NCBI GenBank assembly: GCA_046350795.1
Contig: JAXLZT010000001.1
Location: 389,164-453,163 of the forward strand
Direction of reading: 5' to 3'
DNA length: 64,000 nt
DNA from: Minisyncoccota bacterium
GTDB taxonomy: Bacteria; Patescibacteriota; Minisyncoccia; Phycocordibacterales; CALRHW01
The number at the start of each line of letters is the position of its first letter. Within the stretch, counting starts at the first letter, position 1. Below, in pieces: positions 23,613 through 60,894 of this stretch. The notes beneath the pieces were generated by a model, which saw nothing but the letters and a program-made list of their open reading frames with translations, searched no databases and was not told where the DNA came from. The position numbers and the translations under genes are program-made.

Positions 23613-23649
23613 TTAGAGCTTACCCCACTCACACCCGACCGATCACTAC

Positions 23650-24375
23650 TCACTTGGCGATAGCCAGGGTCAGATCTGGGTGCGGCTCATAGCCCAAAGG
23701 CGTTGGAGCATCATCACGTAGTCCGCAGACCACGGATATGAGCTGTACGGCATTGTCCCGGCCCACCTTGACTGTGCTACTTGGTGCCGGCGTGTACCCC
23801 TCCCCGAGCTCAAAGCCGACCGCTTTGATGAGCTCGATGTACGGCACCCCAAGCGTGTCATCTTCAGCACCACAGTTGGGCGAGAAGTCTTCGATCAACT
23901 GTGGAAACACCAGAGTGTCTAGGATTTGCTCCATTTTGGCAAAGAACGCAAGGCTGAGCAGGCCAATCCTCGATCCACAGCAACTTGGCTTGTGCGAGAA
24001 CATGTCATCGACTCGTCGACTGTATCCATCGATGAGTGCTGCATAGTGGCGATCGAAGATGCCGTTGCCACCAGATATATTCCAATAGCCAAGGAGATGA
24101 TCAATGCTTTTTGTGTGTCCTGTTCGGTCAATGTACCGTTGCATGATCTCACGCGCTTCTGGATGGCGTAGGTGCTTTGCCGTCTTATCCATCCAGACCT
24201 GATGCTTGCCTCTCATGAACAGGGCTCGGTGGATACCGGCCACCCTTTTGAGACCCAGAACCTTCTCTTCTCCGTAGCAACGAAGTGCAGACTCGATCGC
24301 CCGGCTGAACTTGGGGCTCATTTCTCCCAGTAGTGCTCGTGCCTCCACTTGCCCAGCTTCTTCTTGCGTCATCAT
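23650..24375 (-). CDS. GC-rich soluble hypothetical protein (241 aa)
   Basis: Long ORF with SD GAAAGG. No recognisable motif. Confidence 0.5.
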   Translation of the reverse strand: MMTQEEAGQVEARALLGEMSPKFSRAIESALRCYGEEKVLGLKRVAGIHRALFMRGKHQVWMDKTAKHLRHPEAREIMQRYIDRTGHTKSIDHLLGYWNISGGNGIFDRHYAALIDGYSRRVDDMFSHKPSCCGSRIGLLSLAFFAKMEQILDTLVFPQLIEDFSPNCGAEDDTLGVPYIELIKAVGFELGEGYTPAPSSTVKVGRDNAVQLISVVCGLRDDAPTPLGYEPHPDLTLAIAK

Positions 24376-24390
24376 TGTCTTTGCCTTTCT

Positions 24391-24406
24391 ACCGTGCTTG
24401 CACGGT
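24391..24406. promoter_or_regulatory. palindrome ACCGTGC-TT-GCACGGT in the 5'UTR of the 241-aa gene
   Basis: Perfect 7-bp arms located 16-30 nt upstream of the start codon. Confidence 0.3.
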
Positions 24407-24577
24407 GTGAAGTGATTGTCTCAACGAACAGTCAGGATAGTAGCTAGTCACACGACTGGCCACTTCATATTTATTTCTGTCCAAAATAATGACATACAAA
24501 ACGCATTTAAGCAAGTCTAAATGGGCGCGTATCAATACCGTTGCCTTTTTTCTATAATTGTATATAATCTTTTTCAT

Positions 24578-25759: not shown

Positions 25760-26452
25760 ATGGCTATAGACTTCTCAAAATTTGAAGAAAAAGCTGGAGT
25801 AAAATTTAACGATAAAAACCTGCTAAAACAGGCTTTTGTTCATCGTTCATATATAAATGAAAACAAAGAATCAGGATTAGAGCACAATGAGCGACTCGAG
25901 TTTCTTGGAGACGCTGTGCTAGAGCTAGTGATCACTGATTATTTATACAAACAATATCCTGACAAAAATGAGGGTCAAATGACGAGCTACCGCTCTGCGC
26001 TAGTAAATGCTACGACTTGTGCGGAGGTAGCAACTGCTTTAGATATAAATGATTTTTTGCTTTTATCAAAAGGCGAAATGAAAGATACTGGCCGTGCTCG
26101 ACAATATATTTTGGCTAACACACTAGAGGCCATCATCGGTGCTATTTATTTAGATCAAGGATATGAAATTGCAAAAGAATTTATTTATAAAAACATTTCT
26201 CCACTTATTGATGGAATTATTTTAAAGGGAAGTTGGATAGATTCAAAAAGTTTATTTCAAGAAAAAGCACAAGAAATGGAAAGTGTTACTCCCGCGTATA
26301 AAACAATAAAAGAAACCGGACCAGATCATGATAAGAGATTTATGGTCGGTGTCTATTTAGGAAAAGAGCTTGTCGCTTCTGGAGAGGGGGAATCAAAACA
26401 AGATGCTGAGCAAGAAGCTGCTCGAAAAGGTCTTGAAAAGAGGGGATGGTAA
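25760..26452 (+). CDS. rnc: ribonuclease III
   Basis: ERLEFLGDAVLELVITDYLY signature plus C-terminal dsRBD. Confidence 0.9.
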   Translation: MAIDFSKFEEKAGVKFNDKNLLKQAFVHRSYINENKESGLEHNERLEFLGDAVLELVITDYLYKQYPDKNEGQMTSYRSALVNATTCAEVATALDINDFLLLSKGEMKDTGRARQYILANTLEAIIGAIYLDQGYEIAKEFIYKNISPLIDGIILKGSWIDSKSLFQEKAQEMESVTPAYKTIKETGPDHDKRFMVGVYLGKELVASGEGESKQDAEQEAARKGLEKRGW

Positions 26453-26460
26453 TATTTTAA

Positions 26461-26491
26461 AACCCTGCGCGCTTGGTAGCACGCAGGGTTC
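26461..26491 (+). terminator. hairpin CCCTGCG...CGCAGGG followed by a T-run
   Basis: Downstream of rnc; usable in both orientations. Confidence 0.45.
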
Positions 26492-26508
26492 AGGTTGTTT
26501 TTTGCTGT

Positions 26509-26916
26509 CTAGGTCATGCGATCTTCTTCGCCTTCTCTGGAGAAATGGAGATCGCTGGGAATCATGCCCCTTCTGATCACGTCCACCCAGTCAATGAACT
26601 CCTCTGTTCCGGCATACTTGCCGTTGACGTGCCTTTTCACGATGATGCCATTTCTTTCTGATCTGACGAAGCACCAGTTGGTGGGAAACGGAGCATCTCT
26701 TCGTGGTTCGACGATCACAGAGTCTCTTGTCGCGGTCTCAAAGAGACGCACGACCGCCTCTATGTCTCGATCATGCTTGTGGTCCGGAAGATTCGGGGGC
26801 TGGTCATCTGTGACCTTTGCCCGCTTTTCCCTTTTCTGCACAAAAAAGGTGATGAGTACCACGATTGCAGTCATCAGTGTGCCTGCACTCACGATGACGA
26901 TTTGTTCCTTGTGCAT
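26509..26916 (-). CDS. GC-rich small membrane-anchored protein (about 135 aa from the internal Met)
   Basis: SD AGGAGAA precedes the ATG at 26916. One TM helix (LMTAIVVLITFFV). Palindrome AGAGCA-CAA-TGCTCT at 26956-26970 and a TTGACT promoter at about 27004. Confidence 0.4.
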   Translation of the reverse strand: MHKEQIVIVSAGTLMTAIVVLITFFVQKREKRAKVTDDQPPNLPDHKHDRDIEAVVRLFETATRDSVIVEPRRDAPFPTNWCFVRSERNGIIVKRHVNGKYAGTEEFIDWVDVIRRGMIPSDLHFSREGEEDRMT

Positions 26917-27050
26917 ATGCTTCTCCTGATGAGTTGGTGTTGTGTACTTGTTTTTAGAGCACAATGCTCTTCCTAAACTATTTTTATAATAGATTTATAT
27001 ATAAGTCAAGTATTTTATACGCATTCAAATAATGCTAATCTTAGAAATAC

Positions 27051-29366: not shown

Positions 29367-29469
29367 ATTTAAGGGTTCTTTGTGAAAGAATCATCATTTG
29401 AGATCGTATGCTCAAATCCAGTCGCCTTCGAGATAATTTCAAAAAGGCTAACAGAAAAAGGAGCACATC

Positions 29470-30237
29470 ATGAAAGCATGGACTCAAGTCCCCGCTGGCG
29501 ACATCAATGCCGCCAATCAACGTCTGTGGGGAGCGATCGGCGACAACGCCGAAGAGGTCGCAGCCCGCATCAACACCGACCCTGCGTTCGTGGCGAACAT
29601 CGCACGACTCATGGTCAATGGCGGTTACGAGCCGTCAACGTCACAGAAGCTCGCCCGCGAGATCATGGGCAAGAACTTCTTCGGTATCGAGGAGGCGATC
29701 AAACACTTCGGGGTTAATCCCACGAAGCAACAGCTCGCTTGCTTGGCTGAAGTTCCGTGGAGCGAGGAAGTGCTGAAGTCATGCAAGGACACGCACGTTC
29801 TCGTCGCCGTCTTTCCGCTGTCGATCCTCGACATCCGTGGACACGCCCGAAAGCAGTCCGACCGGACCCTGTTTTACTCACAGGACTGGTATGACAAGCA
29901 GGCCTTCGCCAAGGACAAGGGCGAAGTCGGCTGGCAGTTGGTCCGCAAGGAACCGATCGCCAACTCGACCTCGAAGATGTGGAACGATCAACAGGCACTC
30001 CTCTCGAAAGACGAGGAAACTCCGACTGCTCGGATCGTGGTTTACACCATGGTCGGCCACCTCCTCGCTACTGGAGAGCGTCTGTTCGAGAAGATCTACG
30101 TTCGTTGCGTCGATCTCGACTCGGACGGTGACCGCGTCAGCGTCCGCGGCTTCGATGCCGGGGGTCTCGTCGTCTACGGCTGGTGCGGCGGCGACCGCGA
30201 TTTCAGCATCGGCTTGTCGGCTGCCAGGAAGCAGTGA
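29470..30237 (+). CDS. very GC-rich hypothetical protein (255 aa)
   Basis: Long ORF in a stretch of about 60% GC. The alternative-frame ORFs are GC-content artefacts. No recognisable motif. Confidence 0.5.
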   Translation: MKAWTQVPAGDINAANQRLWGAIGDNAEEVAARINTDPAFVANIARLMVNGGYEPSTSQKLAREIMGKNFFGIEEAIKHFGVNPTKQQLACLAEVPWSEEVLKSCKDTHVLVAVFPLSILDIRGHARKQSDRTLFYSQDWYDKQAFAKDKGEVGWQLVRKEPIANSTSKMWNDQQALLSKDEETPTARIVVYTMVGHLLATGERLFEKIYVRCVDLDSDGDRVSVRGFDAGGLVVYGWCGGDRDFSIGLSAARKQ

Positions 30238-30275
30238 TTCTTGATCCCTTGAGGGCTTGTCCTTCTTGAACACTT

Positions 30276-30318
30276 GAGCCTCCGCGAAGTTTTTTTGCGG
30301 AGGCTCTTTCTTTTTAAA
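30276..30318 (+). terminator. hairpin GAGCCTCCGC...GCGGAGGCTC followed by TTTCTTTTTAAA
   Basis: 10-bp GC stem. Convergent with the rnr stop codon. Confidence 0.55.
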
Positions 30319-32236
30319 TCAAAATAAAATCAAGAGTCTTTCTATCTAAATCTGCATTTGTTACCTTAAATTTCACCTTATCTCCGAGAGAGTATTTTTT
30401 ACCAGTTTTTGTTCCTATTAGTGAGTAATTTTTTTCATCGAGTTCGTATGTATCGTCTTTCATATCACGAATCTTTGCCATTCCTTCACATTTTGTTTCT
30501 GTCTCTTCAATATAAATACCCCATTCACTAATACCAGAAATAGTACCTTCAAACTCTTGTCCGATTCGACTACTCATGTACTCTACTTGTTTGTATTTTA
30601 TAGAAGCTCTCTCTGCTTCTGCAGCAGAAATTTCTTGCTCTGATGCTTCCATAGAAATTTTTTCATATTTCTCAAATTCGTTTTGCTCAACTTTTCCTTT
30701 TGTCAGTTGTCTCTGAAGCAATCTGTGCACTATTAGATCTGGATATCTACGAATAGGGGAAGTGAAATGTGTATAGTATTCAAAGCCTAGACCAAAGTGA
30801 CCAATGTTGCGAGTAGAGTAAATAGCTTTTGCCATTGATCGTAGAGTTGCTGTTTTTATTAGGGATTCAGATGATGAACCCTCTACTTTTTTTAGCATAG
30901 CGCTTATATCTTTTGCTGAAACATTTCCGTCTTTTTGTTTAAGTTCAAAACCAAGTGCCTTTAAAAAGATTGCTAGATTAGCGATTTTTTCTGAGTTTGG
31001 TTCTGGGTGAATTCGATAAACAAAAGCTTCACCTTTTTTACTTTTTTCATTTACCTCAAAAACAACCTGCGCCACTTCGCGGTTTGCAAGGAGCATATAC
31101 TCTTCTACGAGCTTGTGCGTATCGAGGCGTGCCTTTTTGTATACGCGTATAGGAACACCCTTTTCATCTAGCTCAAATCGCACTTCTTCTGTTTCAAAAT
31201 CGATTGCTCCATTTTGTTTTCTCTCTTCTTGCATTATTTTTGCAATCTTGTTGAGTGTGTCCAACTCTTTCCACCACTCCATACTTCCACCACTGTTTAT
31301 GGTTTCCTGAGCATTTTCATATGCAAATCTTTTATTGGAGTTTATTATTGTTTTTCCAAACCATCTTTCTTTTATTTTTGCGTCTTTTGTCATTACAAAG
31401 ACAGAAGAGAAAGCAAATTTGTCTTCGTGAGGATTTAGACTACACATATCGTTTGAGAGAATTTCTGGGAGCATCGGTATTGTCCTGTCTACCAAATATA
31501 CTGAAAAACCTCTTTTGCGAGCTTCTTTGTCTAAAACACTTCCTTCGGTGACAAAGTGAGATACGTCAGCTATATGCACTCCTATTTCATAATCACCGTT
31601 TGGTAATTCTTTAAAAGAGATTGCATCATCAAAATCTTTTGCATCTACAGGATCAATGGTGAAAGTCGCTGTATCACGAAAATCTTTTCTCTTTTTAACT
31701 TCTTCTGCAAAGTTTGCGCGGGCAATTTCTGATGCTCTTTTTGCTTCTTCTTCTACTTCTGGTGGAAAATCAGTATCAAAACCTTTTTCTAAAACGATAG
31801 ATTGCATCTCTACATCATGCACACCTTTCTTTCCTAGCACACGTAGTACTTCGCCGACAGGGCTACTTTTTACATCTTTCCATTCTGCGATTCGTACAAA
31901 TATTTTGTCTCCATGCTGTGCGCCGTTTGTTTTTGTTGGATCAATGAGAATGTCTTTGTACAATCTTTTATCGTCGGCTATTAGGTATAGCCCCTTTTCG
32001 TCTTTATCAGCTACTCCGACAAAGGACATTTTGTTGCGCTTTATTATTTTTACTACTTGACCTTGTTGACGTACGCCTTTTACAGGGGGAAGAAGCTCGA
32101 CTTCTACTTCGTCGTCGTTTAAGGCTGTTTTTAGGAGATGTGTTTGTATCTCGATGTCTTCTTCTACTCCTTCTACCGGCAGGTATCCTATGGCTTTTGA
32201 AGTGATCTTTATGTGTCCGGAAACTTTGTTATTCAT
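30314..32236 (-). CDS. rnr: ribonuclease R
   Basis: Cold-shock/OB N-terminus, RNB catalytic domain and C-terminal S1 domain. Confidence 0.85.
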   Translation of the reverse strand: MNNKVSGHIKITSKAIGYLPVEGVEEDIEIQTHLLKTALNDDEVEVELLPPVKGVRQQGQVVKIIKRNKMSFVGVADKDEKGLYLIADDKRLYKDILIDPTKTNGAQHGDKIFVRIAEWKDVKSSPVGEVLRVLGKKGVHDVEMQSIVLEKGFDTDFPPEVEEEAKRASEIARANFAEEVKKRKDFRDTATFTIDPVDAKDFDDAISFKELPNGDYEIGVHIADVSHFVTEGSVLDKEARKRGFSVYLVDRTIPMLPEILSNDMCSLNPHEDKFAFSSVFVMTKDAKIKERWFGKTIINSNKRFAYENAQETINSGGSMEWWKELDTLNKIAKIMQEERKQNGAIDFETEEVRFELDEKGVPIRVYKKARLDTHKLVEEYMLLANREVAQVVFEVNEKSKKGEAFVYRIHPEPNSEKIANLAIFLKALGFELKQKDGNVSAKDISAMLKKVEGSSSESLIKTATLRSMAKAIYSTRNIGHFGLGFEYYTHFTSPIRRYPDLIVHRLLQRQLTKGKVEQNEFEKYEKISMEASEQEISAAEAERASIKYKQVEYMSSRIGQEFEGTISGISEWGIYIEETETKCEGMAKIRDMKDDTYELDEKNYSLIGTKTGKKYSLGDKVKFKVTNADLDRKTLDFILI

Positions 32237-45398: not shown

Positions 45399-45498
45399 AA
45401 CAAAAAAAGCTTTCTCAGGGTACGGACTTTTTGAAGCTTAAAAAGTCCTGAAACGCTCGGCTCGACAGCCTCGCGACCCCCTTCGAAAGCTTTTTTGT
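45399..45498 (+). terminator. nested inverted repeats downstream of rpoD
   Basis: Outer AACAAAAAAAGCTTTC / GAAAGCTTTTTTGTT and inner GGACTTTTT-GAAGCTT-AAAAAGTCC hairpin. Confidence 0.4.
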
Positions 45499-45540
45499 TG
45501 CTTACACGAGTCTTTTCTCAATATGGTTTTTGCTTTGATA

Positions 45541-45601
45541 TTTTCAAAAGAAAACGCCGCACCGAGAGTGTGCCCGACGGGCGTCCTCTCTAGTGCGGCG
45601 T
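45541..45601 (-). terminator. hairpin ACGCCGCAC...GTGCGGCGT followed (minus strand) by TTTTCTTTTG
   Basis: 9-bp GC stem with a 30-nt loop. Confidence 0.45.
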
Positions 45602-45633
45602 GTATGCCGACATGGTTTTTGTGCCAGCTTCCC

Positions 45634-46194
45634 TTATCTGAGAACCAGCACTGTCATCGTGGTGTTCAGGACGAAGCATCCGCATGGGATGAGACGCTCC
45701 TCGATTGTCCACTTCTTTGCTCCATAGCAGGAAAGGACGCAAGAGAAAGCGACACCAGCCCATAGCCACCAACTCTCTGAGTTCGGTTTCAGCCACGCAT
45801 CATACATGGCTGGAAACGCAGCGATCGTCATGGCGGTCATGCAAGCGACGATTGCCAACTTGGGGCCAGATCTCCACCAGCAGATCACCGCGACTGCCAT
45901 CCCGATGGCAGAGATCATTTCCACCAGACCCCAATGCCACGTTCCTTTCCCGAGAAGGATGATCGTGACGAGGAGAGCTCCGAGTGTGAACCCAGCAGGA
46001 AGCCAGGGTCGCTTGTTGCCGGCTGCAACGCAGCCAACAAGGATCAGGGCATCAAGCACTGTCCACATGATCCAGCTCGCTGTATTCTGGGGTAAGTCGT
46101 GTACCATCAGATAGACAGCGAAGGCGACGATCACGATCGTCGAGATCAATCCTCCAATCAGACCGATTCTCTTTTTCAAGAGTTCGTTTTGCAT
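45634..46194 (-). CDS. GC-rich 6-TM membrane protein (186 aa), paralog of 18998..19645
   Basis: Shares the ASWI, GAL(L/I)V and SESWWLW motifs with the 215-aa island protein. SD GAAAGG. Inverted repeat GGCCGCAT...ATGCGGCC upstream at 46244-46286. Confidence 0.5.
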   Translation of the reverse strand: MQNELLKKRIGLIGGLISTIVIVAFAVYLMVHDLPQNTASWIMWTVLDALILVGCVAAGNKRPWLPAGFTLGALLVTIILLGKGTWHWGLVEMISAIGMAVAVICWWRSGPKLAIVACMTAMTIAAFPAMYDAWLKPNSESWWLWAGVAFSCVLSCYGAKKWTIEERLIPCGCFVLNTTMTVLVLR

Positions 46195-46550
46195 CGTTAG
46201 CCTTTCGGTTTGTTGTGATTCTTAGACTGCTGCCCACGATATTGGCCGCATTTTTCAAGACCCGGAAGATCCTAAAAGATGCGGCCAACGAAAACCATAT
46301 CAAGGAACTATTACGCGAAATAATAGCATACAAAAATAAAAAAGTCAATAAAAAAGAAGGCCACCCCCAAAAGGGTGGCGCTGAGGGTTGTTATTGACTT
46401 GTCGAATGGTGTTTCGCCCGGCGAGTCAATGCTGAGAGACATGCTGTACGCGAACTCGCTCTGTCAGAGAGGTTGGTGAAGTTGACTTTTTTCTACAATG
46501 TCTTAGTCTGTTTGAGGACATCACCACATACAAAAGAAAGGAGGTGATAA

Positions 46551-47468
46551 ATGATCCGTAAAAATGGAAGAGGTGGTGGCACTCAGAGCGATACGTCCGA
46601 ACTGCTTCGATTTTTTTCGGGCAAGATTGAGCAATACCCCATTCTTACAAGAGAGGAGGAGGTGGAGCTTTTCAAGCGTATCGAAGCTGGTGACGTACAG
46701 GCAAGAGAAGACCTGGTGTATTCAAACGTACGCATCGTCATTAAGACGGCCTTCGTGTACTGGAATATATCTAGAAAACGTTATGGGCCAATCCATTTCG
46801 CTCTAGATGATCTGGTCCAGGTGGGGTTCACCGGTCTCTATAGGGCCGTTGAGAAGTTTGACTGGCGACGCGGGAACAAGTTTTCCACATACGTCAGTTG
46901 GTGGATTCGTCAGGCGATTTCGAGGCTGATATGCAATACGGGTAACACAATCAGGTTGCCTGTGAATTTGCAGGCACGTATCTCGAAATATCGGAAGACT
47001 GTCATCCGCCTTACCAAGGAACTAGGCCGTACTCCTCATCTAGTAGAGATAGCTGGGAGGATGAAGCTGAGGGTGGATTGTGTCGAAGAACTGATAGCGA
47101 TTACTCAGATTCAACCCATGTCACTCGACGAGCCGTCTTCACCAGAATCTCCAGACAGCACGCTTTTATCTGTTATACCGACCAAGGGTGTTCAGCCATG
47201 GAGAGATGTTCATAGGCAGAATATTCTGGCGTTTAAACAGGAGAAGATCGAGAGGGTGTTGAAATCTCTCACTTCTCAAGAACGTGATGTCATCACATTG
47301 CGCTTTGGTCTTGATGGGCAGGGTGAGCGCACTCTTGGGGAGGTTGGTAAGTTGTACGGTGTTACTCGAGAGCGGATTAGACAGATAGAGGGCAAGGCAC
47401 TTCTCAAACTTCGCGAACGCCACGAAGAAGATCTCGCCGAACTTCTTTTCGAAATGGGCGACAAATGA
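46551..47468 (+). CDS. second sigma70-family sigma factor (group 2-like, no region 1.1), moderately GC-rich
   Basis: Regions 1.2/2 (QYPILTREEEVELFKRIEAGD, FSTYVSWWIRQAISRLI), 3 and 4 ([19 protein letters not shown]). Perfect SD AAAGGAGGTGA. Upstream inverted repeat ATTGACT-N24-AGTCAAT at 46393-46430. Confidence 0.7.
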   Translation: MIRKNGRGGGTQSDTSELLRFFSGKIEQYPILTREEEVELFKRIEAGDVQAREDLVYSNVRIVIKTAFVYWNISRKRYGPIHFALDDLVQVGFTGLYRAVEKFDWRRGNKFSTYVSWWIRQAISRLICNTGNTIRLPVNLQARISKYRKTVIRLTKELGRTPHLVEIAGRMKLRVDCVEELIAITQIQPMSLDEPSSPESPDSTLLSVIPTKGVQPWRDVHRQNILAFKQEKIERVLKSLTSQERDVITLRFGLDGQGERTLGEVGKLYGVTRERIRQIEGKALLKLRERHEEDLAELLFEMGDK

Positions 47469-47469
47469 T

Positions 47470-47512
47470 GAACCATGCGTGAGATTTTTGCGCGTGGTTC
47501 TTTCTTTTCTAA
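47470..47512 (+). terminator. hairpin GAACCATGCG...CGCGTGGTTC followed by TTTCTTTTCT
   Basis: 10-bp stem with island-style tail. Confidence 0.5.
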
Positions 47513-51351: not shown

Positions 51352-52158
51352 ATGGACATTTTTTCTGCCATTTTGCTTGGTGTGGTACAGGGTGTGACCG
51401 AGTTTTTACCCATCTCTTCTTCTGGGCATTTGATTGTAATGCGTGATTTGCTTGGTTTGAAGATTGGAGGATCGCTTGCTTTTGATGCTGTGCTTCAGCT
51501 CGCTACGTCACTCGCTGTGTTGCTTTATTTTTGGAAAGATCTTGTGGCTCTTGTGCGAGTCAGAGATGTGAAAAACAAAACTCTAGTGTGGGCAATATTG
51601 GTCGGTACTATACCGGCCGTGCTGGTGGGTTTTCTATTTGAAGATAAAATAGATGTACTTTTTAGAAACTCACACACTGTAGCGTGGGCCCTTATTGTTG
51701 GTAGTATTTTATTTTTTATTGCGGAAAGATATTCAAAATCTTGTGAGCGAAAAAGTGCGGATATGAAAGACATTGATGCTACATGCGCACCGCATGGGAT
51801 TTCGGTGAAAAGGGGATTTATCGTGGGTTGTTTTCAGGTGTTAGCACTAATACCTGGTATGTCACGTTCAGGCTCTACTATTTCTGGGGGGTTACTTTTA
51901 AATATAAAAAGAGAAGATGCTGTGAGATTTAGTTTCCTACTTTCTTTACCAATTTTGCTTGGGTCGGGTTTAAAAAAGTTATTGGATTTGGGTGGCAATG
52001 GGGGAATAGATATACCACTCGTAGTTGGTTCTGTCGTCGCTTTTGTGGTTGGCCTTGCTTCAATTCATTTTTTAATTATTTATTTGCGTAGACACACCCT
52101 CAATGCTTTTATTATTTATCGTATTCTGCTCGCGTTGGCGATTTTTATATTTTTTTAA
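51352..52158 (+). CDS. uppP: undecaprenyl-diphosphate phosphatase
   Basis: MDIFSAILLGVVQGVTEFLPISSSGHL N-terminal signature. Start moved to the internal Met. Confidence 0.85.
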   Translation: MDIFSAILLGVVQGVTEFLPISSSGHLIVMRDLLGLKIGGSLAFDAVLQLATSLAVLLYFWKDLVALVRVRDVKNKTLVWAILVGTIPAVLVGFLFEDKIDVLFRNSHTVAWALIVGSILFFIAERYSKSCERKSADMKDIDATCAPHGISVKRGFIVGCFQVLALIPGMSRSGSTISGGLLLNIKREDAVRFSFLLSLPILLGSGLKKLLDLGGNGGIDIPLVVGSVVAFVVGLASIHFLIIYLRRHTLNAFIIYRILLALAIFIFF

Positions 52159-52164
52159 TTAATG

Positions 52165-52193
52165 TTGACATTGGGCTGTATAGTGTGTATAAA
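52165..52193 (+). promoter_or_regulatory. consensus sigma70 promoter TTGACA-17-TATAAA
   Basis: Perfect -35 and a 17-bp spacer. Palindrome TACCGA-TTGTG-TCGGTA at 52206-52222 in the 5'UTR. Confidence 0.5.
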
Positions 52194-52255
52194 TTGTTTT
52201 GGAAGTACCGATTGTGTCGGTATTTAGGGGTACAAACTTAACGGAGATTTAGTCC

Positions 52256-52759
52256 ATGACGAAGACGTCATTAAAGTTTCGTGTCCGAACTCACGGGATT
52301 GTGGTTGATGTTCGACAAGACAGCAAGTGGGTCAATGCAATTTCTGTGATGGCCGTCATGCGTCCCGGCTCTTTTGATGTGAGCCGGGTAGGCGGACTCT
52401 ATCCTCCCGTTGGTAATGGGATGATCAAGAAGAGCCTCACTCTGCTGAATTTCCCAGAAGGTGACGGTGGTTTGGACAGTGCTGTTGTTTGGGCCAAGGA
52501 TAATGGCCTGAAAACAGTCGAACCACGTTCACTTTTTGCCATCAAGACGGCACACCCCGGACTTCACAAGAAGATCGGTCAGGGTGGGGTAGTTCTCGTG
52601 GAGACTGTCGGATGTACGCTGAATCATACTGGCTTCCCTGACAAACGCCATCTGTGTTGCGTTGTCTTGGGGGACGGTGTGCCCGCTGTCGGACTGTTTC
52701 CGGTCAACCAATTCAACGGCTTTGGTAGCCACGACACCTGGTTTGTGTTTAGTGACTAG
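52256..52759 (+). CDS. GC-rich hypothetical protein (167 aa)
   Basis: ORF flanked by its own consensus promoter and terminator. No recognisable motif. Confidence 0.5.
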   Translation: MTKTSLKFRVRTHGIVVDVRQDSKWVNAISVMAVMRPGSFDVSRVGGLYPPVGNGMIKKSLTLLNFPEGDGGLDSAVVWAKDNGLKTVEPRSLFAIKTAHPGLHKKIGQGGVVLVETVGCTLNHTGFPDKRHLCCVVLGDGVPAVGLFPVNQFNGFGSHDTWFVFSD

Positions 52760-52795
52760 TGTGTTGGCACCAGAAACCAGACTTCAGTCTCACTT

Positions 52796-52840
52796 CCGCG
52801 CGAGCGCCTCATGGCCCTCGCGCGGTTTCTATTTTCTATA
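52796..52840 (+). terminator. hairpin CCGCGCGAG...CTCGCGCGG followed by TTTCTATTTTC
   Basis: 9-bp GC stem. Confidence 0.55.
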
Positions 52841-52854
52841 TTTTTTGTCAGAAA

Positions 52855-53439
52855 TTAAAAAGGCAGGGTAAAAGTCATTCCTGCACCAGAATCTTCAGAT
52901 TTTTTATCCCAATGTTTTGTATCAAGTTTTATTTCCATTACTACACCACCCTCCTTAAACTTTAAACCATTGTTTTTTATTGCGTATTCAAAGACATCTT
53001 TCGTAATTTTCACATCATCAAGGCAGTATTTTTTCACTTTTTCTTTTTCACCTTTTCGCCACCATTCTACAGCTTCAAGCCCGTGCCCAGATTTTTTTAT
53101 ACCCAAAGTTGCCTCGGCTATTTGGTCGAGTTTCATTCTGCGTCCGAAAGAGTTTTTTATTTCTTTGAGTATGTCTAGATGTTGTATTTTTGCTAAATCA
53201 CCAGCGTAGTATTTGTTTAAAAGGGGTAAGTCAAAGTGTTCAGAATTGAAACCAATGAGTAGATCAGCTTTTTCTAAAATAGGCCAAAGTTGCCCAAACT
53301 CCTCTTTCTCAAAAGTGGAGTAGGTGTCGGATTCATAATCGTATATTCCAACAATAGAAATATCTAAAAGAGAGGGATCGTTTTTACCAACATCAGAAAA
53401 AATATTGCTTGTTTCAATATCAAATACTACTTTTTTCAT
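52855..53439 (-). CDS. DEDD-family 3'-5' exonuclease (DnaQ-like)
   Basis: Exo I motif VVFDIETS. RNase H-like fold size. Confidence 0.6.
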   Translation of the reverse strand: MKKVVFDIETSNIFSDVGKNDPSLLDISIVGIYDYESDTYSTFEKEEFGQLWPILEKADLLIGFNSEHFDLPLLNKYYAGDLAKIQHLDILKEIKNSFGRRMKLDQIAEATLGIKKSGHGLEAVEWWRKGEKEKVKKYCLDDVKITKDVFEYAIKNNGLKFKEGGVVMEIKLDTKHWDKKSEDSGAGMTFTLPF

Positions 53440-54768: not shown

Positions 54769-55515
54769 ATGTCTATTTTCCCAATAAACAAAAATCTGGG
54801 CGAAACGCCCCTAGAAGCACTCAATCATCTGCGTATAGAGCGACCAGAATACAAAGATAGTCCGATGACATATGCTGGCAGGCTCGACCCAATGGCCGAA
54901 GGCGTGCTTTTAGTGCTGACGGATGAAGACAATACTCGTCGTGAGGAATTTTTAGGCTTGGAAAAAGAATATGAATTTGATGTCCTTTGGGGTGTCGAGA
55001 CTGACACATATGATGTACTTGGCAAAATTGTCGCAGAGAAAATCCCTGCGGTTTTTGATAAAAAAGAATTCACAAAGATGATTGAAAAATATACAGGAAT
55101 ATACAATCAGCCGTATCCGCCGTATTCATCTCAGCCGGTAAATGGCAAACCACTTTTTGCATGGGCTCGCGAAGGGCGACTCGGTGAAATAGAAATTCCA
55201 AGTAAAGAAATAGATATTAAAAAACTCGAACACGTGGGCGACAGACGCATCATCACTGCAGATTTAAAAGAAAAAATACTTGGCAATATTGCGCTAGTGA
55301 AGGGGGATTTTCGACAAAAAGAAATCGTGGATCTGTGGCAGAAATTTTTCTCCAAGCATCCAAGCGCTATTTTTACTTTTTCTACATTCCGCGCGACTGT
55401 GACTAGCGGGGCATATATGCGTGGGCTGGCGCATACTTTTGGGCGCGAGCTTGGATGTGGTGGTTTGGCTTTAAAAATCATCCGCACAAGAGTGGGGAAA
55501 TATCAGAAAGACTAA
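54769..55515 (+). CDS. truB: tRNA pseudouridine55 synthase (TruB family)
   Basis: Catalytic motif TYAGRLDPMAEGVLLVL. Confidence 0.8.
   Translation: MSIFPINKNLGETPLEALNHLRIERPEYKDSPMTYAGRLDPMAEGVLLVLTDEDNTRREEFLGLEKEYEFDVLWGVETDTYDVLGKIVAEKIPAVFDKKEFTKMIEKYTGIYNQPYPPYSSQPVNGKPLFAWAREGRLGEIEIPSKEIDIKKLEHVGDRRIITADLKEKILGNIALVKGDFRQKEIVDLWQKFFSKHPSAIFTFSTFRATVTSGAYMRGLAHTFGRELGCGGLALKIIRTRVGKYQKD
55376..55430. repeat. 55-bp segment of the truB 3' coding region, copy 1 of a direct repeat (copy 2 at 55836-55890)
   Basis: tttttctacattccgcgcgactgtgactagcggggcatatatgcgtgg(g)ctggc occurs twice, about 460 bp apart, with one indel. Confidence 0.8.
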
Positions 55516-55544
55516 TTTCGAAGCGGATGTTTTTCGGGGTGGGG

Positions 55545-55573
55545 TTGACATTATTTTTTTTGTATGTTAGTAT
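55545..55573 (+). promoter_or_regulatory. sigma70-like promoter TTGACA-17-TAGTAT
   Basis: Located in an AT-rich stretch just after the truB stop codon. Confidence 0.4.
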
Positions 55574-55579
55574 CTGTCT

Positions 55580-55843
55580 CAGAACATTCTGATGCTGTCT
55601 TTGGTACTATACGGCTGATCCCCGTATAGACCGGTGGTAGTCAACCCACCCGATAGATAATGGTAAGATAGCAAGCTAGTATTGGGCATCACGTTGCAAA
55701 AGAAAACTTCGTGAGCCGGTGGTAGTCAACCCACCTAGTGAGAAAAAGTATGGCAGTGCTTTATCTCATCGACTTGTCTCAAAAACAAGTCAACAACAAG
55801 TCTGCCAACACAAACACCACGCACATGTGGTGTTTTTCTTTTT
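55580..55843 (+). ncRNA. candidate about 260-nt noncoding RNA with two identical stem-loops, ending at an intrinsic terminator
   Basis: No ORF of 60 aa or more. The 20-nt element CCGGTGGTAGTCAACCCACC (hairpin GGTGG-tagtcaac-CCACC) occurs at 55631 and 55705. Terminator ACACCAC-GCACAT-GTGGTGT plus TTTTTCTTTTTC at 55813-55843. Confidence 0.35.
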
Positions 55844-55890
55844 CTACATTCCGCGCGACTGTGACTAGCGGGGCATATATGCGTGGCTGG
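55836..55890. repeat. copy 2 of the 55-bp truB-derived direct repeat
   Basis: See copy 1. Begins with the T-tail of the ncRNA terminator. Confidence 0.8.
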
Positions 55891-55938
55891 CTTTTAGAAT
55901 ATTAAGAAAAAGAGTAGGGAATTATATTTCGGAATAAT

Positions 55939-55967
55939 TTGACTTTTTTAAATATTACTGATTAAAT
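55939..55967 (+). promoter_or_regulatory. sigma70-like promoter TTGACT-17-TTAAAT
   Basis: Upstream of the 164-aa island ORF. Confidence 0.4.
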
Positions 55968-56018
55968 GTTGGAGACGTTCTTAATGTTCGACCAATGTCC
56001 ATCAACTCAGGAGGTGTC

Positions 56019-56513
56019 ATGTCCACGACGACAGAACCAACTATCGCCTGTCTGGAGGACAGGAAGAGTCTCATCGAGGCGGCCGTGAAGAGACTCATCG
56101 AAGACTGCGAAGGTCAGCTGCTGGTGAAGAAGGGAGAACGGGCGAATATCACCATCACGCTCGGGGTCGGACTATCCGATGAACGACCCCACCATTCGTT
56201 CAAGGTGGATCTCAAGGTGCAAAGCAAGTCTGACAGGATGCGCACCCTGGGTCCTGTCACGACTGTAGAGGAGTGGTCGCGACTGAGCAATCTCAGCTTC
56301 CGGTCTCCAGCCATCGCCGAGTTCATCCAAGCTCTCAAGCCAGTTGCTGGCAAGTCAAGATCTGCTCGCGCCGGAGATTTCTTCCGGTATGGCAACGAGA
56401 TTCACAGCATCAATCAGAAGCTTCGTGACAGCGACATTCGAATGAGGGTGAGAGGAACATATGGGGGCATGTTCCAAGATCGCCACTTCACTCTCGTGAG
56501 AGTGGGGCATTGA
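56019..56513 (+). CDS. GC-rich hypothetical protein (164 aa), candidate toxin-like partner of the upstream ncRNA
   Basis: SD AGGAGGTG sits 5 nt before the ATG at 56019 (the alternative upstream ATG at 55995 lacks an SD). No recognisable motif. Confidence 0.5.
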   Translation: MSTTTEPTIACLEDRKSLIEAAVKRLIEDCEGQLLVKKGERANITITLGVGLSDERPHHSFKVDLKVQSKSDRMRTLGPVTTVEEWSRLSNLSFRSPAIAEFIQALKPVAGKSRSARAGDFFRYGNEIHSINQKLRDSDIRMRVRGTYGGMFQDRHFTLVRVGH

Positions 56514-56540
56514 TGGATCGACGAATTTCGGGAAGCAATG

Positions 56541-56590
56541 GCCCGAGGTGTGTGCTTCAGTGCACATGCCTCGGGCTGTTTCATTTGTAG
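56541..56590 (+). terminator. hairpin GCCCGAGG...CCTCGGGC followed by TGTTTCATTTG
   Basis: 8-bp GC stem just after the stop codon. Confidence 0.45.
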
Positions 56591-57045
56591 AAAATATTTA
56601 TCCCATGTTATTGTTATATCGGATTGTGGGGTGATGCGTTTATTCATTACTGATTCCTTTCCTCCTAACCTGAGGAGATCTAATGCTCTAACGAATGAAC
56701 ACAAAGAGGAAAAAGCACCACGTGGACTTGATCACCTACGTGGGCGAGGTGGGTAGCAAATCCCCCCAGTTGTTTCTGGGCAAGAAGGGTGTTGTGATGC
56801 ATGCACATGGCACTTGGTGGTCCGCGGTCGCCGCTACGCCCTTCCCAAGCCGGTAGCTCTCGTCTGACTGCTTTCCAGTGGCAGATGATCTACTCAGTAT
56901 GGACATTCATTAGTTCGATCGTGTGTCCGTATGAACCCCTAGAGGAACAGGGGTTAGCAGAATGGAATCGAACACGCTACCGCGTTAATGCTTTCGCGGT
57001 GAGGCGAGATAAGAGCATCCGGTTGCCTCGTAGGCATCCGGCGTC

Positions 57046-57090
57046 ACCACCGAACTGCGCGCACGCGTACTCGGTGGTATTTTAATTATA
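57046..57090 (+). terminator. hairpin ACCACCGA...TCGGTGGT followed by ATTTTAATTAT
   Basis: Ends the GC-rich noncoding stretch 56590-57090. Convergent with the typA stop codon. Confidence 0.4.
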
Positions 57091-57096
57091 TTGTTT

Positions 57097-58851
57097 CTAT
57101 TTCTTAAGACTTTTCTTTCTCAGTCTCACACTCTCAGGGGTGATTTCTATAAAGTCATCTTCGGCCATGATTTCCATCGCGCGTTCGATTGAAAGCTTGA
57201 ATGCTGGTACCAAAAAGATTCCTTCGTCAGATCCAGACGCACGCATGTTGGTGAGCTGTTTTCCTTTTGTGGGATTCACATACATTGTGTCGCCTTTTGT
57301 AACATTTCCTACGATCATTCCTTCGTATACTTCTGTTGTAGGCTCGATGTATAGGACTCCTCGTTCTTGCAAGTTAGCCAAAGAGAAAGCTAAAGCTTTT
57401 CCTCCTGCCATAGAAACCATTGAGCCATATGACTGCTTTTTTATTTCTCCTACGTGTGGTTTGAATTCTGTAAATCGGCTTGAAATAATTCCTTCGCCTT
57501 TTGTGTCGATGACAAATTGTCCTCGATATCCGAGTAGGCCACGAGTTGGGATTTCAAAAATAATTCTTTGATGACCCTGCTCTTGCTTCATGTTTGTAAG
57601 GATTCCTTTTCTTTCGCCGAGTCGAGCAATGACGGCACCAGCACTTTCATCCGGCACATCTACTATAACTTCTTCAAAAGGTTCATAAGTGACTCCGTCT
57701 ATTTCTTTTAATATAACGTTTGGCTGTGATACTTGTAGTTCAAAACCTTCGCGTCGCATATTTTCTAGCAAGATAGCAATGTGTAACTCTCCACGACCAT
57801 AAACTGTAAAATGCTCTCCTTCATTAAAATTTACTTTCAAACCGACATTTATCTCAAGCTCTTTTTCTAGTCGATCACGAATCTGTCTTCCTGTGACATA
57901 TTTTCCTTCGCGTCCAGCAAAAGGCGAGTCGTTTACTAGAAAATTTAGGGAAATTGTTGGCTCATCTATTTTAATAGCAGGTAGCGCTTCTTGATCTACA
58001 TTTTGGCAAATAGTTTCTCCGATATATATCTGAGGAAGTCCGGCTATCATCACTATGTCTCCAGCTGTTGCTTCGTTTATTTCCTTTTTTTGTATTCCTT
58101 CAAATGTGAAAATTTTAATTAATTTTCCTGAGTAGTTTGTTCCATCAACTTTTTTTACTACCACAGGCTCACCAACCTTTATTTTTCCTTCATACACACG
58201 GCAGACAGCTAGACGTCCGAGGAAGTTGTCGTAGCCAAGGTTGAAAGTTTGCATGCGAAGTGGTGCTGATGTGTCGCTCGGCGCTGGTGGTACTTGTTTT
58301 AAGATAGTTTCTAAAAGGGGAGTCAAATCTTTTGCTTCGTCTTCTAAGTTCATTTTTGCAGTACCATCTCGTCCTACAGCGTAGACAGTTGTGAAATTCA
58401 TTTGTTCATCGCTAGCACCTAGGTCAAAAAATAGCTCGAGCACTTCGTCTACTACTTCTTTTGGTCGAGCAGCTGGTTTGTCTATTTTATTTACGATAAC
58501 GATAGGTTTGAGGCCGAGCTCTAGAGATTTTTTTAATACAAAGCGAGTCTGTGGCATAGGACCCTCCTGGGCGTCTACCACGAGAAGCACTGTATCTATA
58601 GAACGAAGCACGCGCTCCACCTCTGAGCCGAAGTCGCTGTGGCCTGGAGTGTCCACTATGTTTATTTTCGTGCCTTTATATGAAATAGAGGTATTTTTTG
58701 CGTATATAGTGATACCACGCTCTCTTTCAAGGGCGTTTGAGTCCATAGTAGCGCCTTCTTCTGCGGCACCTGTTTGCTTCATTATTGCGTCAGTAAGAGT
58801 AGTCTTACCATGATCCACGTGGGCTATGATTGCTATGTTTCTTATTTCCAT
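57097..58851 (-). CDS. typA: translational GTPase TypA/BipA
   Basis: [26 protein letters not shown], and C-terminal TypA-specific domains. 584 aa. Confidence 0.85.
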
Positions 58852-58925: not shown

Positions 58926-59201
58926 TTGTTTGCCTTTATTTTACTTGGTATAATATTTTCAATGAAAGATCCACTGGCTATTTTGTCTAATTTTCATATA
59001 CACATTACTCGTGATATCGTCTGGCTTGTTTTCGTGGTCGCTTGTGCGATAGCTGGTCTTTTTAGTGCGGTTTTATTTTTTCACTGGAGAATGTATGGAA
59101 TGAAAAATTATCGTATCGTGTTGGCAGAGATGGTTTTTTTGGTAGGTATTATTTTAATTTTTATGTTTGCTTTTTCTTCTGCTTTTCAATTTACACAATA
59201 A
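58926..59201 (+). CDS. small membrane protein
   Basis: Three hydrophobic helices. No recognisable motif. Confidence 0.4.
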   Translation: MFAFILLGIIFSMKDPLAILSNFHIHITRDIVWLVFVVACAIAGLFSAVLFFHWRMYGMKNYRIVLAEMVFLVGIILIFMFAFSSAFQFTQ

Positions 59202-59202
59202 T

Positions 59203-59748
59203 ATGCTTAACCTAGAGAACGATGAAAAAATAATCTTAGAAGTGCGCAAACATTGGTTTGTGTTTTTAGGTAATGTTATCGGTTTTTTTGTTGGTGGAGT
59301 TTTGCCGATCGTCTTTTATTTTTTGATAGTTACTTTTTCTTCTTTTGATATTTTAAAAATAATTTATGAGTATAAATCTCTTTATTTTTTTATTTACTCA
59401 TTGTGGCTTCTTTTGCTTTGGGTTTTATTTTTTATACAATGGACCAACTATTATCTAGATGTGTGGTATGTGACGGAAAAAAGAATCATAGATGTAAATC
59501 AAAAGGGTATTTTCCATCGCGAAATCTCTAATCTCAGATTTGATAAAATTCAGGATATTAGTATTGAGGTGCGCGGTTTTATTGCCACCATGTTAAATTA
59601 TGGTGATATTAGTGTACAGACTGCAGCGGAAGACAGTAGTGATTTTGTTATGAAAAATGCAAGAGATCCTCAACGTATTCGCAGAATAGTTTTTAGTCAG
59701 CACAATATAGAGGCAGAAAAACTGAGAAAGGTAAAAATAGAGAGCTAG
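59203..59748 (+). CDS. membrane protein with bacterial PH (bPH_2/YdbT-like) domain
   Basis: N-terminus LENDEKIILEVRKHWFVF followed by two TM helices. Start moved to the internal Met. Confidence 0.45.
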   Translation: MLNLENDEKIILEVRKHWFVFLGNVIGFFVGGVLPIVFYFLIVTFSSFDILKIIYEYKSLYFFIYSLWLLLLWVLFFIQWTNYYLDVWYVTEKRIIDVNQKGIFHREISNLRFDKIQDISIEVRGFIATMLNYGDISVQTAAEDSSDFVMKNARDPQRIRRIVFSQHNIEAEKLRKVKIES

Positions 59749-59776
59749 ACACAAAGATATATTTTAAATAAATTAA

Positions 59777-59808
59777 GACCGGCCCGAGGAATGTCCCCGG
59801 GCCGGATT
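59777..59808. terminator. hairpin CCGGCCCGGGG...CCCCGGGCCGG, bidirectional
   Basis: GC-rich palindrome lying between convergent genes. Confidence 0.4.
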
Positions 59809-59840
59809 TGTTGAATTGCGCGCGCACTTGTTGTGTTGCG

Positions 59841-60173
59841 CTAGCCGATCTGCAGGATTTTGTTCCTGCTGATAGAGCCGAGCTTGGTGCAGACGCCGTC
59901 CACCTTCTTTTTCAGTCTGGTGGATCGAATGTCGTACGGCACGGGCATCAGGAGCGCCGCCTTCAGAAAGGCAAAGACGTTCTCGTACCACGATTCCGCA
60001 TCACAGATGGCTGTGGCATCATTGAACAACGCGGTGTTGCTCGTCGATGGTGGGTTGTGTTGCACAGATGTGCAGATGGTCTTCGAGTCACCGGTCTCAG
60101 CGGAGCTGTGGGGTGTCGAAGTCAAGCACATGATTGCGCACAGAAGGGCGAGAATGCCCACGATATTCCGCAT
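59841..60173 (-). CDS. GC-rich small secreted/lipoprotein-like Cys-containing protein (about 110 aa)
   Basis: SD GGAGGT sits 7 nt before the ATG at 60173. Signal peptide LALLCAIMC with possible lipobox. Confidence 0.45.
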   Translation of the reverse strand: MRNIVGILALLCAIMCLTSTPHSSAETGDSKTICTSVQHNPPSTSNTALFNDATAICDAESWYENVFAFLKAALLMPVPYDIRSTRLKKKVDGVCTKLGSISRNKILQIG

Positions 60174-60253
60174 GGTCTGTACCTCCATCACTAGGGGTTG
60201 GAAAGAGCACGACTCGACGCTGGAACTTCTTCTACCCGGAACTACCTTGGGAT

Positions 60254-60281
60254 ATTATATGCTAGTATTTAAATAATTCAA
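60254..60281 (-). promoter_or_regulatory. sigma70-like promoter TTGAAT-16-TATAAT
   Basis: Consensus -10. Divergent from the start of the SPOUT methyltransferase gene. Confidence 0.4.
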
Positions 60282-60282
60282 T

Positions 60283-60894
60283 ATGAAAGAGGTTGATAAA
60301 AAAACAGGTAAAAAATCACATGAAAAATTGGGCGCTTTTGAGTTTAAATCAAAGACACTTTCATATGATCCCAACAAGCCCCGCAATAGAGCCGACTATC
60401 TCAAATGGCTCACTGACGATGAGGTAAAAAAATATCTTGCAGAGCGCAAGCTCAACTATGGTGTGCTCATTGTCAATCTTTTGTATGACAACAATGCTGG
60501 CAACATAGTACGCAGTGCCAACGCTTTTGGTGCTGGTGAAATCGTTTTGTATGGACATAAAACCTTTGATAGACGAGCCAGTGTCGGCTCTGAGTTTTAC
60601 GAATATTTTAGGCATATTAAATTTACAGAAGACATAGACACACTCTTTTCTGAGTATGAGTTGGTGGTGGCTGTAGAAAATGGCACCGAGGCTATAGATC
60701 TAGCAGATTTTAAATGGGATAAAAATAAAAAGACGCTTATTGTTTTTGGTCAGGAAAGTGGGGGAATACCAAAAGAAATTTTAGATAAGTGTCATCATGT
60801 GGTGGAAATAAAACAAATGGGTAGTGTGCGATCACTCAATGTGGCTGTAGCTGCTGGTATTGTGATGAATGATTATTGTACAAAGACTCGATAG
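60283..60894 (+). CDS. SpoU/TrmH-family RNA 2'-O-methyltransferase
   Basis: SPOUT motifs NAGNIVRSANAFGA, IVFGQESGGIP and SLNVAVAAGIV. Confidence 0.75.
   Translation: MKEVDKKTGKKSHEKLGAFEFKSKTLSYDPNKPRNRADYLKWLTDDEVKKYLAERKLNYGVLIVNLLYDNNAGNIVRSANAFGAGEIVLYGHKTFDRRASVGSEFYEYFRHIKFTEDIDTLFSEYELVVAVENGTEAIDLADFKWDKNKKTLIVFGQESGGIPKEILDKCHHVVEIKQMGSVRSLNVAVAAGIVMNDYCTKTR

Follow-up and report, generated by a model that had tools for sequence, protein, structure and literature searches.

The convergent genes truB (plus strand) and typA (minus strand) are separated by 1617 nt in the 64,000-nt stretch analysed here (the window; positions 389,164 to 453,163 of contig JAXLZT010000001.1, from a Minisyncoccota bacterium). 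We read this gap as a hypervariable accessory slot of a Paceibacterota clade, in which displacement anchored in truB has stacked three independent transcription units, and give the reading a probability of roughly 60%. The units would be RNA-1 (3′-truncated, with a sigma-70 promoter of its own), the cassette of an orphan open reading frame (ORF) of 164 aa, here called ORF164, and RNA-2; the gap would then be a recombination patchwork in which two copies of an undescribed structured small RNA (sRNA), diverged from each other, accompany one orphan protein gene and leftover truB ends. A first-pass annotation of the same DNA had proposed a type III toxin-antitoxin (TA) or abortive-infection locus, which is not supported.

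Related truB loci were gathered from 20 assemblies. The closest relative (L002), a separately deposited assembly from SRP135725, has a TruB 95% identical to that of the window; differences from it were counted per 100 nt as mismatches or indels. The locus of the window itself was also met as a 1189-nt Logan contig or unitig (L001) from SRR14234072. Two covariance models were used, R1 for the module of hairpin A plus hairpin B described below, and R2, built from L002, L033 and L034 only, with the window sequences left out. The background for RNA fold z-scores, as given for RNA-1, was dinucleotide shuffles.

The truB ends and their probable displacement

The main features of the gap and its borders are the following.

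54769-55515, plus strand: truB, functional, tRNA pseudouridine-55 synthase (Pfam TruB_N, 2e-24)
55545-55573, plus strand: predicted RNA-1 promoter, TTGACA-17-TAGTAT, 10 of 12 positions as in the consensus, and TG ahead of the -10 hexamer
55577-55845, plus strand: RNA-1, structured sRNA of ~270 nt, two modules plus two further hairpins
55812-55845, plus strand: RNA-1 terminator, hairpin 55812-55835 followed by a T-run
55833-55891, plus strand: displaced truB fragment (core of copy 2), encoding FSFSTFRATVTSGAYMRG, with a 1-nt deletion (GCGTGG-CTGGC) common to L002
55887-55937, plus strand: tail of a third truB allele, LAFRILRKRVGNYISE and stop (NYISE and stop), ending at the codon where truB stops
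55939-55967, plus strand: promoter-like site of ORF164, TTGACT-17-TTAAAT, read from the sequence
56009-56014, plus strand: Shine-Dalgarno sequence of ORF164, AGGAGG, 4 nt from the ATG
56019-56513, plus strand: ORF164, 164 aa, whose last codons (RVGH and stop) enter the probable truB-tail remnant
56499-56536, plus strand: candidate further truB-tail remnant, AGAGTGGGG...AATTTCG..AAGC, closing ORF164 in frame with truB
56537-56590, plus strand: terminator after ORF164, hairpin 56537-56580, T-tail from 56577
56630-57085, plus strand: RNA-2, full-length family member of ~430-460 nt, by R2 match and fold, 5′ end uncertain
57097-58851, minus strand: typA/bipA, convergent, right-hand boundary of the variable locus (Pfam families listed for orthologues)

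TruB of the window is 100% identical to NCBI protein U0522_02420, from a Candidatus Paceibacterota metagenome-assembled genome. The last ~145 nt of the gene (from 55371) are the homology anchor. Of these, the 54 nt of the FSTFRATVTSGAYMRG region recur downstream (55371-55424 and 55833-55886, 53 of 54 positions identical, 462 nt apart start to start), a likeness far beyond chance, so that the first-pass report of a truB 3′ piece repeated about 460 bp downstream holds. The rest of the functional tail (55425-55515, encoding GGLALKIIRTRVGKYQKD and the stop) is an allele found, among the C-termini compared, in the window genome only. That annotation had overlooked the extension of copy 2 with the diverged tail at 55887-55937, the remnant at 56499-56536, and RNA-2.

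Copy 2 is more complete in L002, where it extends 132 nt to a stop of its own and, once the 1-nt deletion is corrected, encodes FSFSTFRATVTSGAYMRG followed by LAHTFGRELGCGAIALRIVRARVGKYIVD and stop. This is a complete TruB C-terminus (KYIVD and stop), stopping at the same codon position as truB (KYQKD and stop), and the likeness between the two truB copies of that genome ends at the stop codon. It is 83% identical to the truB of its own genome and 85% to that of L022. The two 54-mers agree there at 48 of 54 positions (89%), as against 53 of 54 in the window, and the homology extends 79 nt beyond the 54-mer (89% identity), as far as the stop codon.

Copy 2 of the window breaks off after GCGTGG-CTGGC and is joined to the third tail at a TGGC microhomology (CTGGC/TTGGC), with ~40 nt lost. 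This tail resembles the TruB C-terminus of L033 most, with 73% amino acid identity to it (tblastn), and has 58-73% DNA identity to every sampled truB end, and the promoter-like site of ORF164 lies directly 3′ of it. The candidate remnant at 56499-56536 gave a local alignment score of 23 against the truB tail plus downstream sequence (p ~0.005, 2000 shuffles) and p ~0.025 against the copy-2 tail of L002; it is probably a truB-tail remnant, at moderate support. The tails ending KYQKD, KYIVD (L002 copy 2) and NYISE precede RNA-1, RNA-2 and ORF164, respectively. Homology is confined to coding sequence, the stop is kept at the same codon and copy 2 of L002 is not closest to its own truB; these three observations indicate that the copies had each served as functional gene ends, in separate genomes, before being brought together. 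Such separate histories argue both against a simple in-situ duplication and against a fixed attachment (att) core.

The sizes of the gap in related genomes show how variable the slot is. Sites with ~73 nt (L006) and 152 nt (L007) are effectively empty; gaps of 392 nt (L033), 454 nt (L024) and 509 nt (L034) have no called gene and contain the RNA; larger ones measure 602 nt (L029-31, with a 148-aa orphan ORF), 955 nt (L035/36), 1117 nt (L002) and 1272 nt (L004). Unrelated orphan ORFs fill the 600-1270-nt gaps of L029-32, L035/36, L003, L004 and L022. The order in L002 is promoter, RNA (three units), terminator, the 132-nt copy 2, and then sequence equal to that of the window from 56577. The ORF164 cassette (55892-56576) has in its place there 102 nt (7207-7308 of L002), with flanks 98-100% identical; near-identity resumes at 56577, in the T-tail of the ORF164 terminator. 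The following stretch, 56577-57096, which is GC-rich and holds RNA-2, is identical at 518 of 520 positions, compared with 97.0% for typA, 97.8% for hisS and 94.2% for truB.

The comparison with L002 is mosaic as a whole. Against a background of 2-5 differences per 100 nt, the truB tail and promoter spacer (55400-55600) have 16-27, and the region from 55600 to 57200 at most 2. The 3′ part of typA (57200-57400) has 9-14 in a gene otherwise 97% identical, mirroring the patch at 55400-55600, and divergent patches on both the truB and the typA side suggest recombination breakpoints on both flanks of the slot. Further on, at 59100-59700 downstream of typA, divergence jumps to ~15-30%, another mosaic boundary.

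The mechanism that we favour would have each incoming segment start inside the conserved truB 3′ end, which would serve as homologous anchor, while its other end was joined illegitimately at a microhomology; the resident truB end and its cargo would then be pushed downstream rather than replaced. On this view the recurring truB pieces would once have formed the 3′ ends of alleles belonging to different lineages. Two junctions of the window lie at such sites, the TGGC junction with its ~40-nt loss and a T-run where RNA-1 gives way to the truB fragment, the latter junction common to L002. RNA-1 would have been stacked on copy 2 and RNA-2 in the common ancestor with L002, and ORF164 would have entered copy 2 afterwards, in the lineage of the window. 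We infer the mechanism, this order and transcription from the predicted promoters by comparing sequences. The process would be homology-facilitated illegitimate recombination, alias C-terminal displacement. The same mechanism has been proposed for the immunity arrays of the Vibrio cholerae type VI secretion system (T6SS) and for Rhs loci (Kirchberger et al., 2017, PMC5361080, who cite Jackson et al., 2009 and de Vries and Wackernagel, 2002). PMC10633639 reports that natural competence was demonstrated in Patescibacteria, which makes transformation-driven events plausible.

The RNA-1 terminator would be a by-product of the first of these events. Its junction reads AAACACCACGCACATGTGGTGTTT followed directly by TTCTTTTTCTACATTCC, as it does in L002, and it appears to be a recombination junction whose hairpin comes from the RNA and whose U-tract comes from the first bases of the displaced truB fragment. 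The small in-frame ORF that had been seen to run through the terminator into the truB segment exists: 55 codons at 55738-55905 (GTG start; an ATG at 55749), in the truB frame and ending WLLEY and stop. Most probably it is a side effect of the joining.

The displacement arrays described for Rhs, for CdiA-CT/immunity and for V. cholerae T6SS effector-immunity loci (PMC5361080) share with this locus an anchor in a conserved gene, cargo that arrives with a replacement 3′ end, an old 3′ end shifted downstream with its own cargo, a string of diverged 3′ ends each with different cargo, and mosaic tracts. They differ in their anchor, a polymorphic toxin where the present locus has a housekeeping tRNA-modification gene, and in their cargo, toxin-immunity pairs as opposed to an sRNA gene plus an orphan ORF; here there are only two or three layers in one lineage, and no evident selective logic like the retention of immunity genes. 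Integron cassette arrays also stack small, unrelated, often orphan cassettes next to a promoter, but the locus has no intI, attI or attC, and each cassette has a promoter and terminator.

A tandem duplication in situ of the truB 3′ end with promoter and RNA, after which the RNA copies diverged while gene conversion acted on the truB pieces, would give exactly the order found (truB, truncated RNA, truB fragment, full-length RNA), with breakpoints in truB and in the RNA, and the 53/54 identity in the window could reflect such conversion. We nevertheless hold it to be unlikely. RNA-1 and RNA-2 align by structural motifs only, whereas the adjoining truB pieces are 83-98% identical; an unselected copy should decay like non-coding DNA, and instead there is a sharp end at the stop and an open tail of the right length. 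Nor does it sit well with the distance of L002 copy 2 from its own truB, or with the third tail, a different and distant allele.

Less probable still is site-specific integration, with non-autonomous elements using the truB 3′ end as att site, a tyrosine or serine integrase acting in trans, and the repeats as attL and attR. Like integrase islands at the 3′ ends of tRNA, tmRNA (transfer-messenger RNA) or protein genes, the locus has a duplicated target end in direct repeats flanking an insert, a gene kept intact by the replacement end, and tandem accumulation, and the window even shows a near-perfect 54-nt "core". Against this, 55516-57096 has no integrase or recombinase ORF (only ORF164 and short unsupported ORFs, without Pfam match), nor is there a recombinase gene immediately beside any of the 20 related loci. 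The "core" of L002 is 89% identical, no better kept than the next 79 nt; the homology there covers ~132 coding nucleotides and goes no further than the stop codon, as fits allelic gene ends. The third-tail junction is a deletion at a 4-nt microhomology, and the repeats enclose an "element" of no more than 462 bp, the inserts of the locus being 0.46-0.7 kb. The first-pass suggestion of an att-site or target duplication survives as regards a recombination scar; a fixed att core or target-site duplication is improbable, the repeats being diverged coding alleles ending at a stop.

The RNA family

The structural elements of the two RNAs are as follows.

55594-55602 and 55665-55672, plus strand: closing stem of RNA-1
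55607-55629, plus strand: hairpin A of RNA-1, loop CUGAUCC
55633-55650, plus strand: hairpin B1 of RNA-1, loop UAGUCAAC
55687-55715, plus strand: hairpin X of RNA-1
55718-55735, plus strand: hairpin B2 of RNA-1
55738-55769 and 55771-55791, plus strand: further hairpins of RNA-1
56718-56743, plus strand: hairpin A′ of RNA-2, loop ACUUGAUCAC
56748-56767, plus strand: hairpin B′ of RNA-2, loop UAGCAAAU
57047-57077, plus strand: terminator of RNA-2, common to L034 and L024

Between the two truB ends, the module of promoter, non-coding RNA (ncRNA) with repeated hairpins, and terminator was described correctly on first reading. The promoter is present as given, and both of its hexamers are kept in L002 within a patch otherwise 27% diverged; comparable TTGACA promoters adjoin the truB stop codon in L004 and L033. 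The intrinsic terminator is likewise there, and folding of the ncRNA region, suggested as a check, gave a stable structure (55577-55850, z = -5.8). The 20-mer CCGGTGGTAGTCAACCCACC does occur as two exact copies (55631-55650 and 55716-55735); the spacing, however, is not 74 nt, as their starts are separated by 85 nt and 65 nt lie between them. We considered the 20-mer as an iteron or arm-type DNA site and rejected this, because its loop is kept and the changes in its stem compensate one another.

The repeated unit is a module of an 8-bp hairpin A, with a loop that usually contains UGAUC, followed by a 5-bp G/C-rich hairpin B with loop UAGYCAWC, located on the truB strand of the truB-typA gap. 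RNA-1 has two modules, with covariance model matches at 55597-55668 (76 bits) and 55679-55753 (37 bits), and RNA-2 has one. Searched against the 64-kb window, R2 gave exactly three matches (55597-55667, 55680-55752 and 56711-56784), the last with E ~2e-5; as this third match falls in 56577-57096, the window holds two genes of the family. R1 matched only within the truB-typA gap and on its plus strand, namely in the window, L002, L004, L024, L033 and L034, and none in relatives with an empty or ORF-filled truB-typA spacer.

Hairpin B recurs 3′ of truB in L004, L024, L033 (twice) and L034 (twice), with compensatory stems (GGUGG/CCACC, GGCGG/CCGCC, GAUGG/CCAUC and GGCGU/ACGCC). Over ten instances it is 100% paired, with double-sided changes in three of its five pairs and a covariation score reached by none of 500 shuffles; for hairpins A and B together, in five genes, pairing is 98.5% and 6 of 13 pairs have double-sided changes. 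Fold z-scores within the family are -5.8, -5.3, -3.4 and -3.1, the last being that of RNA-2. The structure is thus conserved. RNA-1 is without the 3′ domain of full-length members; in RNA-2 this domain and the terminator align with those of the L034 and L024 RNAs, and there are long GC-rich hairpins besides. A possible extended -10 element of RNA-2, TGTTATATC, can be read at 56612-56620.

With Rfam 15 at gathering thresholds the whole window yielded 4 tRNAs only; with looser limits, E ≤ 1 for the locus and E ≤ 10 for the RNA regions in the window, L004 and L034, all matches lay far below the gathering scores of their families, and ARAGORN found no tmRNA. Scans of metagenome and viral collections with exact or degenerate hairpin-B motifs, meant to extend the family, returned chance matches only, unrelated and mostly in GC-rich coding sequence. 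As judged from these sequences, the RNA family is undescribed, clade-restricted and covariation-supported.

The RNA is accessory, being patchily present among relatives; it stands alone and is highly structured and modular, and its unit number differs between genomes otherwise ~100% identical in the block: L002 has three repeat units of ~80 nt where the window has two. Unequal crossing-over would alter the number. Our best guess, held with low confidence, is that the RNA may act as a multivalent binding platform or sponge, showing two to three UGAUC and UAGUCAAC loops to a protein or RNA. Sponge sRNAs (CsrB/CsrC, RsmX/Y/Z) are similarly stand-alone, with variable numbers of repeated hairpins carrying the same loop, and a predicted promoter and terminator of their own is found here as well; the loops here are UAGUCAAC and UGAUC rather than GGA, no partner protein is known, and the likeness is architectural only.

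A bolder proposal starts from the T-arm-like appearance of hairpin B with its UAGUCAAC loop and from the constant position of the RNA directly behind truB. The RNA might be a new functional class of Patescibacteria sRNA that works with TruB (as decoy, substrate or chaperone client) or titrates some other factor, and the truB 3′ end a portable anchor by which cassettes spread through natural transformation among bacteria of the candidate phyla radiation (CPR). We regard this as a long shot, and the functional link to TruB as speculative. In the window, loop A (UUGAU/CUGAU) is complementary to loop B (GUCAA) over 4-5 bp, at 55607-55650 and at 56718-56767. A kissing interaction between them is not claimed, since L034 and RNA-2 show no covariation for it. 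In RNA-2, loop A′ (UGAUCACCU) is similar to the 16S rRNA 3′ end, a resemblance without covariation support.

ORF164 and the toxin-antitoxin question

ORF164 has a composition unlike that of its surroundings, with GC contents at codon positions 1, 2 and 3 of 0.56, 0.44 and 0.65, the third (GC3) compared with 0.31-0.39 in truB, hisS and typA. Its reading frame contains a single stop, compared with 2-13 in each of the others, and its RNA fold is unremarkable (z = -1.3). Taken with the searches described next, these properties favour a genuine protein gene, foreign-looking in composition and gained horizontally. Before its ATG stands the strong Shine-Dalgarno sequence noted earlier. Of the separate promoter assigned to the gene, the hexamers can indeed be read, but they fail the criteria of our promoter scan.

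That the 164-aa protein belongs to no known family agrees with all our searches. None was found in Pfam (E ≤ 1), PADLOC (E ≤ 10) or PHROGs, and no sequence relative in PDB (E ≤ 10). A word-indexed search of 5.8 billion protein clusters returned no homologue except ORF164 itself; exhaustive HMMER comparison with 1.84 billion cluster representatives gave the self-match and one spurious hit (P0122), an Fn3-repeat protein whose score was inflated by nine repeats and which we rejected as a homologue. There was no tblastn match in any of the 20 related loci, and the sole identical match is the Logan contig from the same locus. A single-sequence AlphaFold2 model reached a predicted local distance difference test score (pLDDT) of 51, and Foldseek with this low-confidence model found nothing in PDB below E = 0.07.

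In the type III TA proposal the repeat RNA would be the antitoxin and ORF164 an endoribonuclease toxin that processes it. Known type III systems (ToxIN, AbiQ/antiQ, CptIN, TenpIN) do show the same succession of promoter, repeat ncRNA, terminator and ~165-aa gene, with variable repeat number; here the number is two or three according to strain. As ORF164 is an orphan and its AlphaFold2 model poor, a novel toxin fold is possible. We nonetheless consider the proposal very improbable, chiefly on account of inheritance. L002 has the RNA without ORF164, therefore ORF164 is not the partner of the RNA, and the two are not co-inherited elsewhere either: no protein gene follows on the same strand in L004, L024, L033 or L034, the gap of L004 having an unrelated minus-strand ORF. 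ORF164 would instead be a separate insertion, later than RNA-1. It differs from the RNA in composition and history, and is set apart from it by a truB pseudogene fragment, and it has its own promoter-like site and truB-tail remnant. Type III antitoxins are contiguous tandem repeats of ~34-40 nt directly upstream of the toxin gene, unlike the 79-85-nt two-hairpin modules seen here. No ToxN, AbiQ, CptN or TenpN signal was found in Pfam, PADLOC or PDB sequences, contrary to the likeness suggested at first.

That strain variants of a hypervariable locus were concatenated by the assembler through shared truB k-mers is scarcely credible, even though the locus is strain-variable and the Logan unitig breaks inside the truB repeat, because the junction between RNA-1 and copy 2 occurs in two separately deposited assemblies (window and L002), the unitig spans the junctions of copy 2, third tail, ORF164 and RNA-2, and assembler output requires junction k-mers in the reads.

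Limits, neighbouring variation and significance

Several points weigh against truB-anchored displacement or the RNA-2 gene that it includes. Displaced truB tails were found in none of the 13 other distinct relatives and are confined to the window/L002 lineage; therefore stacking is rare and not a general property of the slot. In none of the sampled relatives, the sampling being sparse, does a truB end with its cargo come close to copy 1 and RNA-1 or to the third tail and ORF164, and because donor genomes were not found, the direction and order of events can only be inferred. The right-hand end of the ORF164 insertion can be placed in two ways, at 56498 if the remnant is accepted as truB tail (p ~0.005) or else at 56576. 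To account for 54-mers that agree better in the window (53/54) than in L002 (48/54), a further event must be assumed, for instance gene conversion or a recent crossover. The promoter scan gave no promoter for RNA-2. Lastly, covariation statistics for the RNA family are limited, as it comprises about seven distinct genes from related metagenome-assembled genomes.

Intergenic cassettes of other kinds were seen near the locus in related genomes. L002 has between hisS and truB (5119-6000) a cassette of ~880 nt, without counterpart in the window (54751/54769), in which a GC-rich membrane ORF of 181 aa stands between a TTGACT promoter and a terminator; this intergenic cassette, too, is specific to the strain. 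In L003 (6814-7494), L004 (3289-3924) and L022 (2306-2851), on the minus strand, the truB-typA slot has a 181-226-aa membrane protein ending in two CxxC pairs, a zinc-ribbon-like motif. The slots of L029-32 and L035/36 have unrelated GC-rich orphan ORFs of 137-148 aa, with a TTGACC promoter adjoining the truB stop codon.

The window has about eleven islands of at least 50% GC in a 40%-GC genome, unrelated to each other and to the locus by blastn and tblastx. Two of them, 52158-52855 (with a 167-aa ORF at 52256-52759) and 59720-60323, are absent from L033 and L006, in which the flanking genes abut or nearly so; by this comparison they are lineage-specific insertions. Others are at 4089-7786, 18945-19799, 21440-21968, 23510-24487, 26414-26951, 29372-30358, 45416-46219 and 46673-47510. 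Some islands have long ORFs on both strands, and could be foreign genes or structured RNAs. Duplication of a flanking gene end was not found at 52158-52855 or 59720-60323; therefore displacement is not a genome-wide signature.

What is new at this locus is the RNA family, present twice; the phenomena are otherwise of known kinds (orphan cassette, displacement scars). We know of almost no ncRNAs in Patescibacteria beyond the universal ones, and the locus adds to these bacteria with their tiny genomes an undescribed structured RNA family supported by covariation. It also counsels caution, since the layout of promoter, repeat RNA, terminator and small ORF was insufficient for a type III TA call, a question that one close relative without ORF164 settled. 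Displacement recombination is best known from polymorphic toxin loci, and if our reading is correct, truB would provide a clean natural example at an ordinary housekeeping gene. Given the natural competence described for the group, such displacement would bear on how CPR bacteria gain accessory genes.

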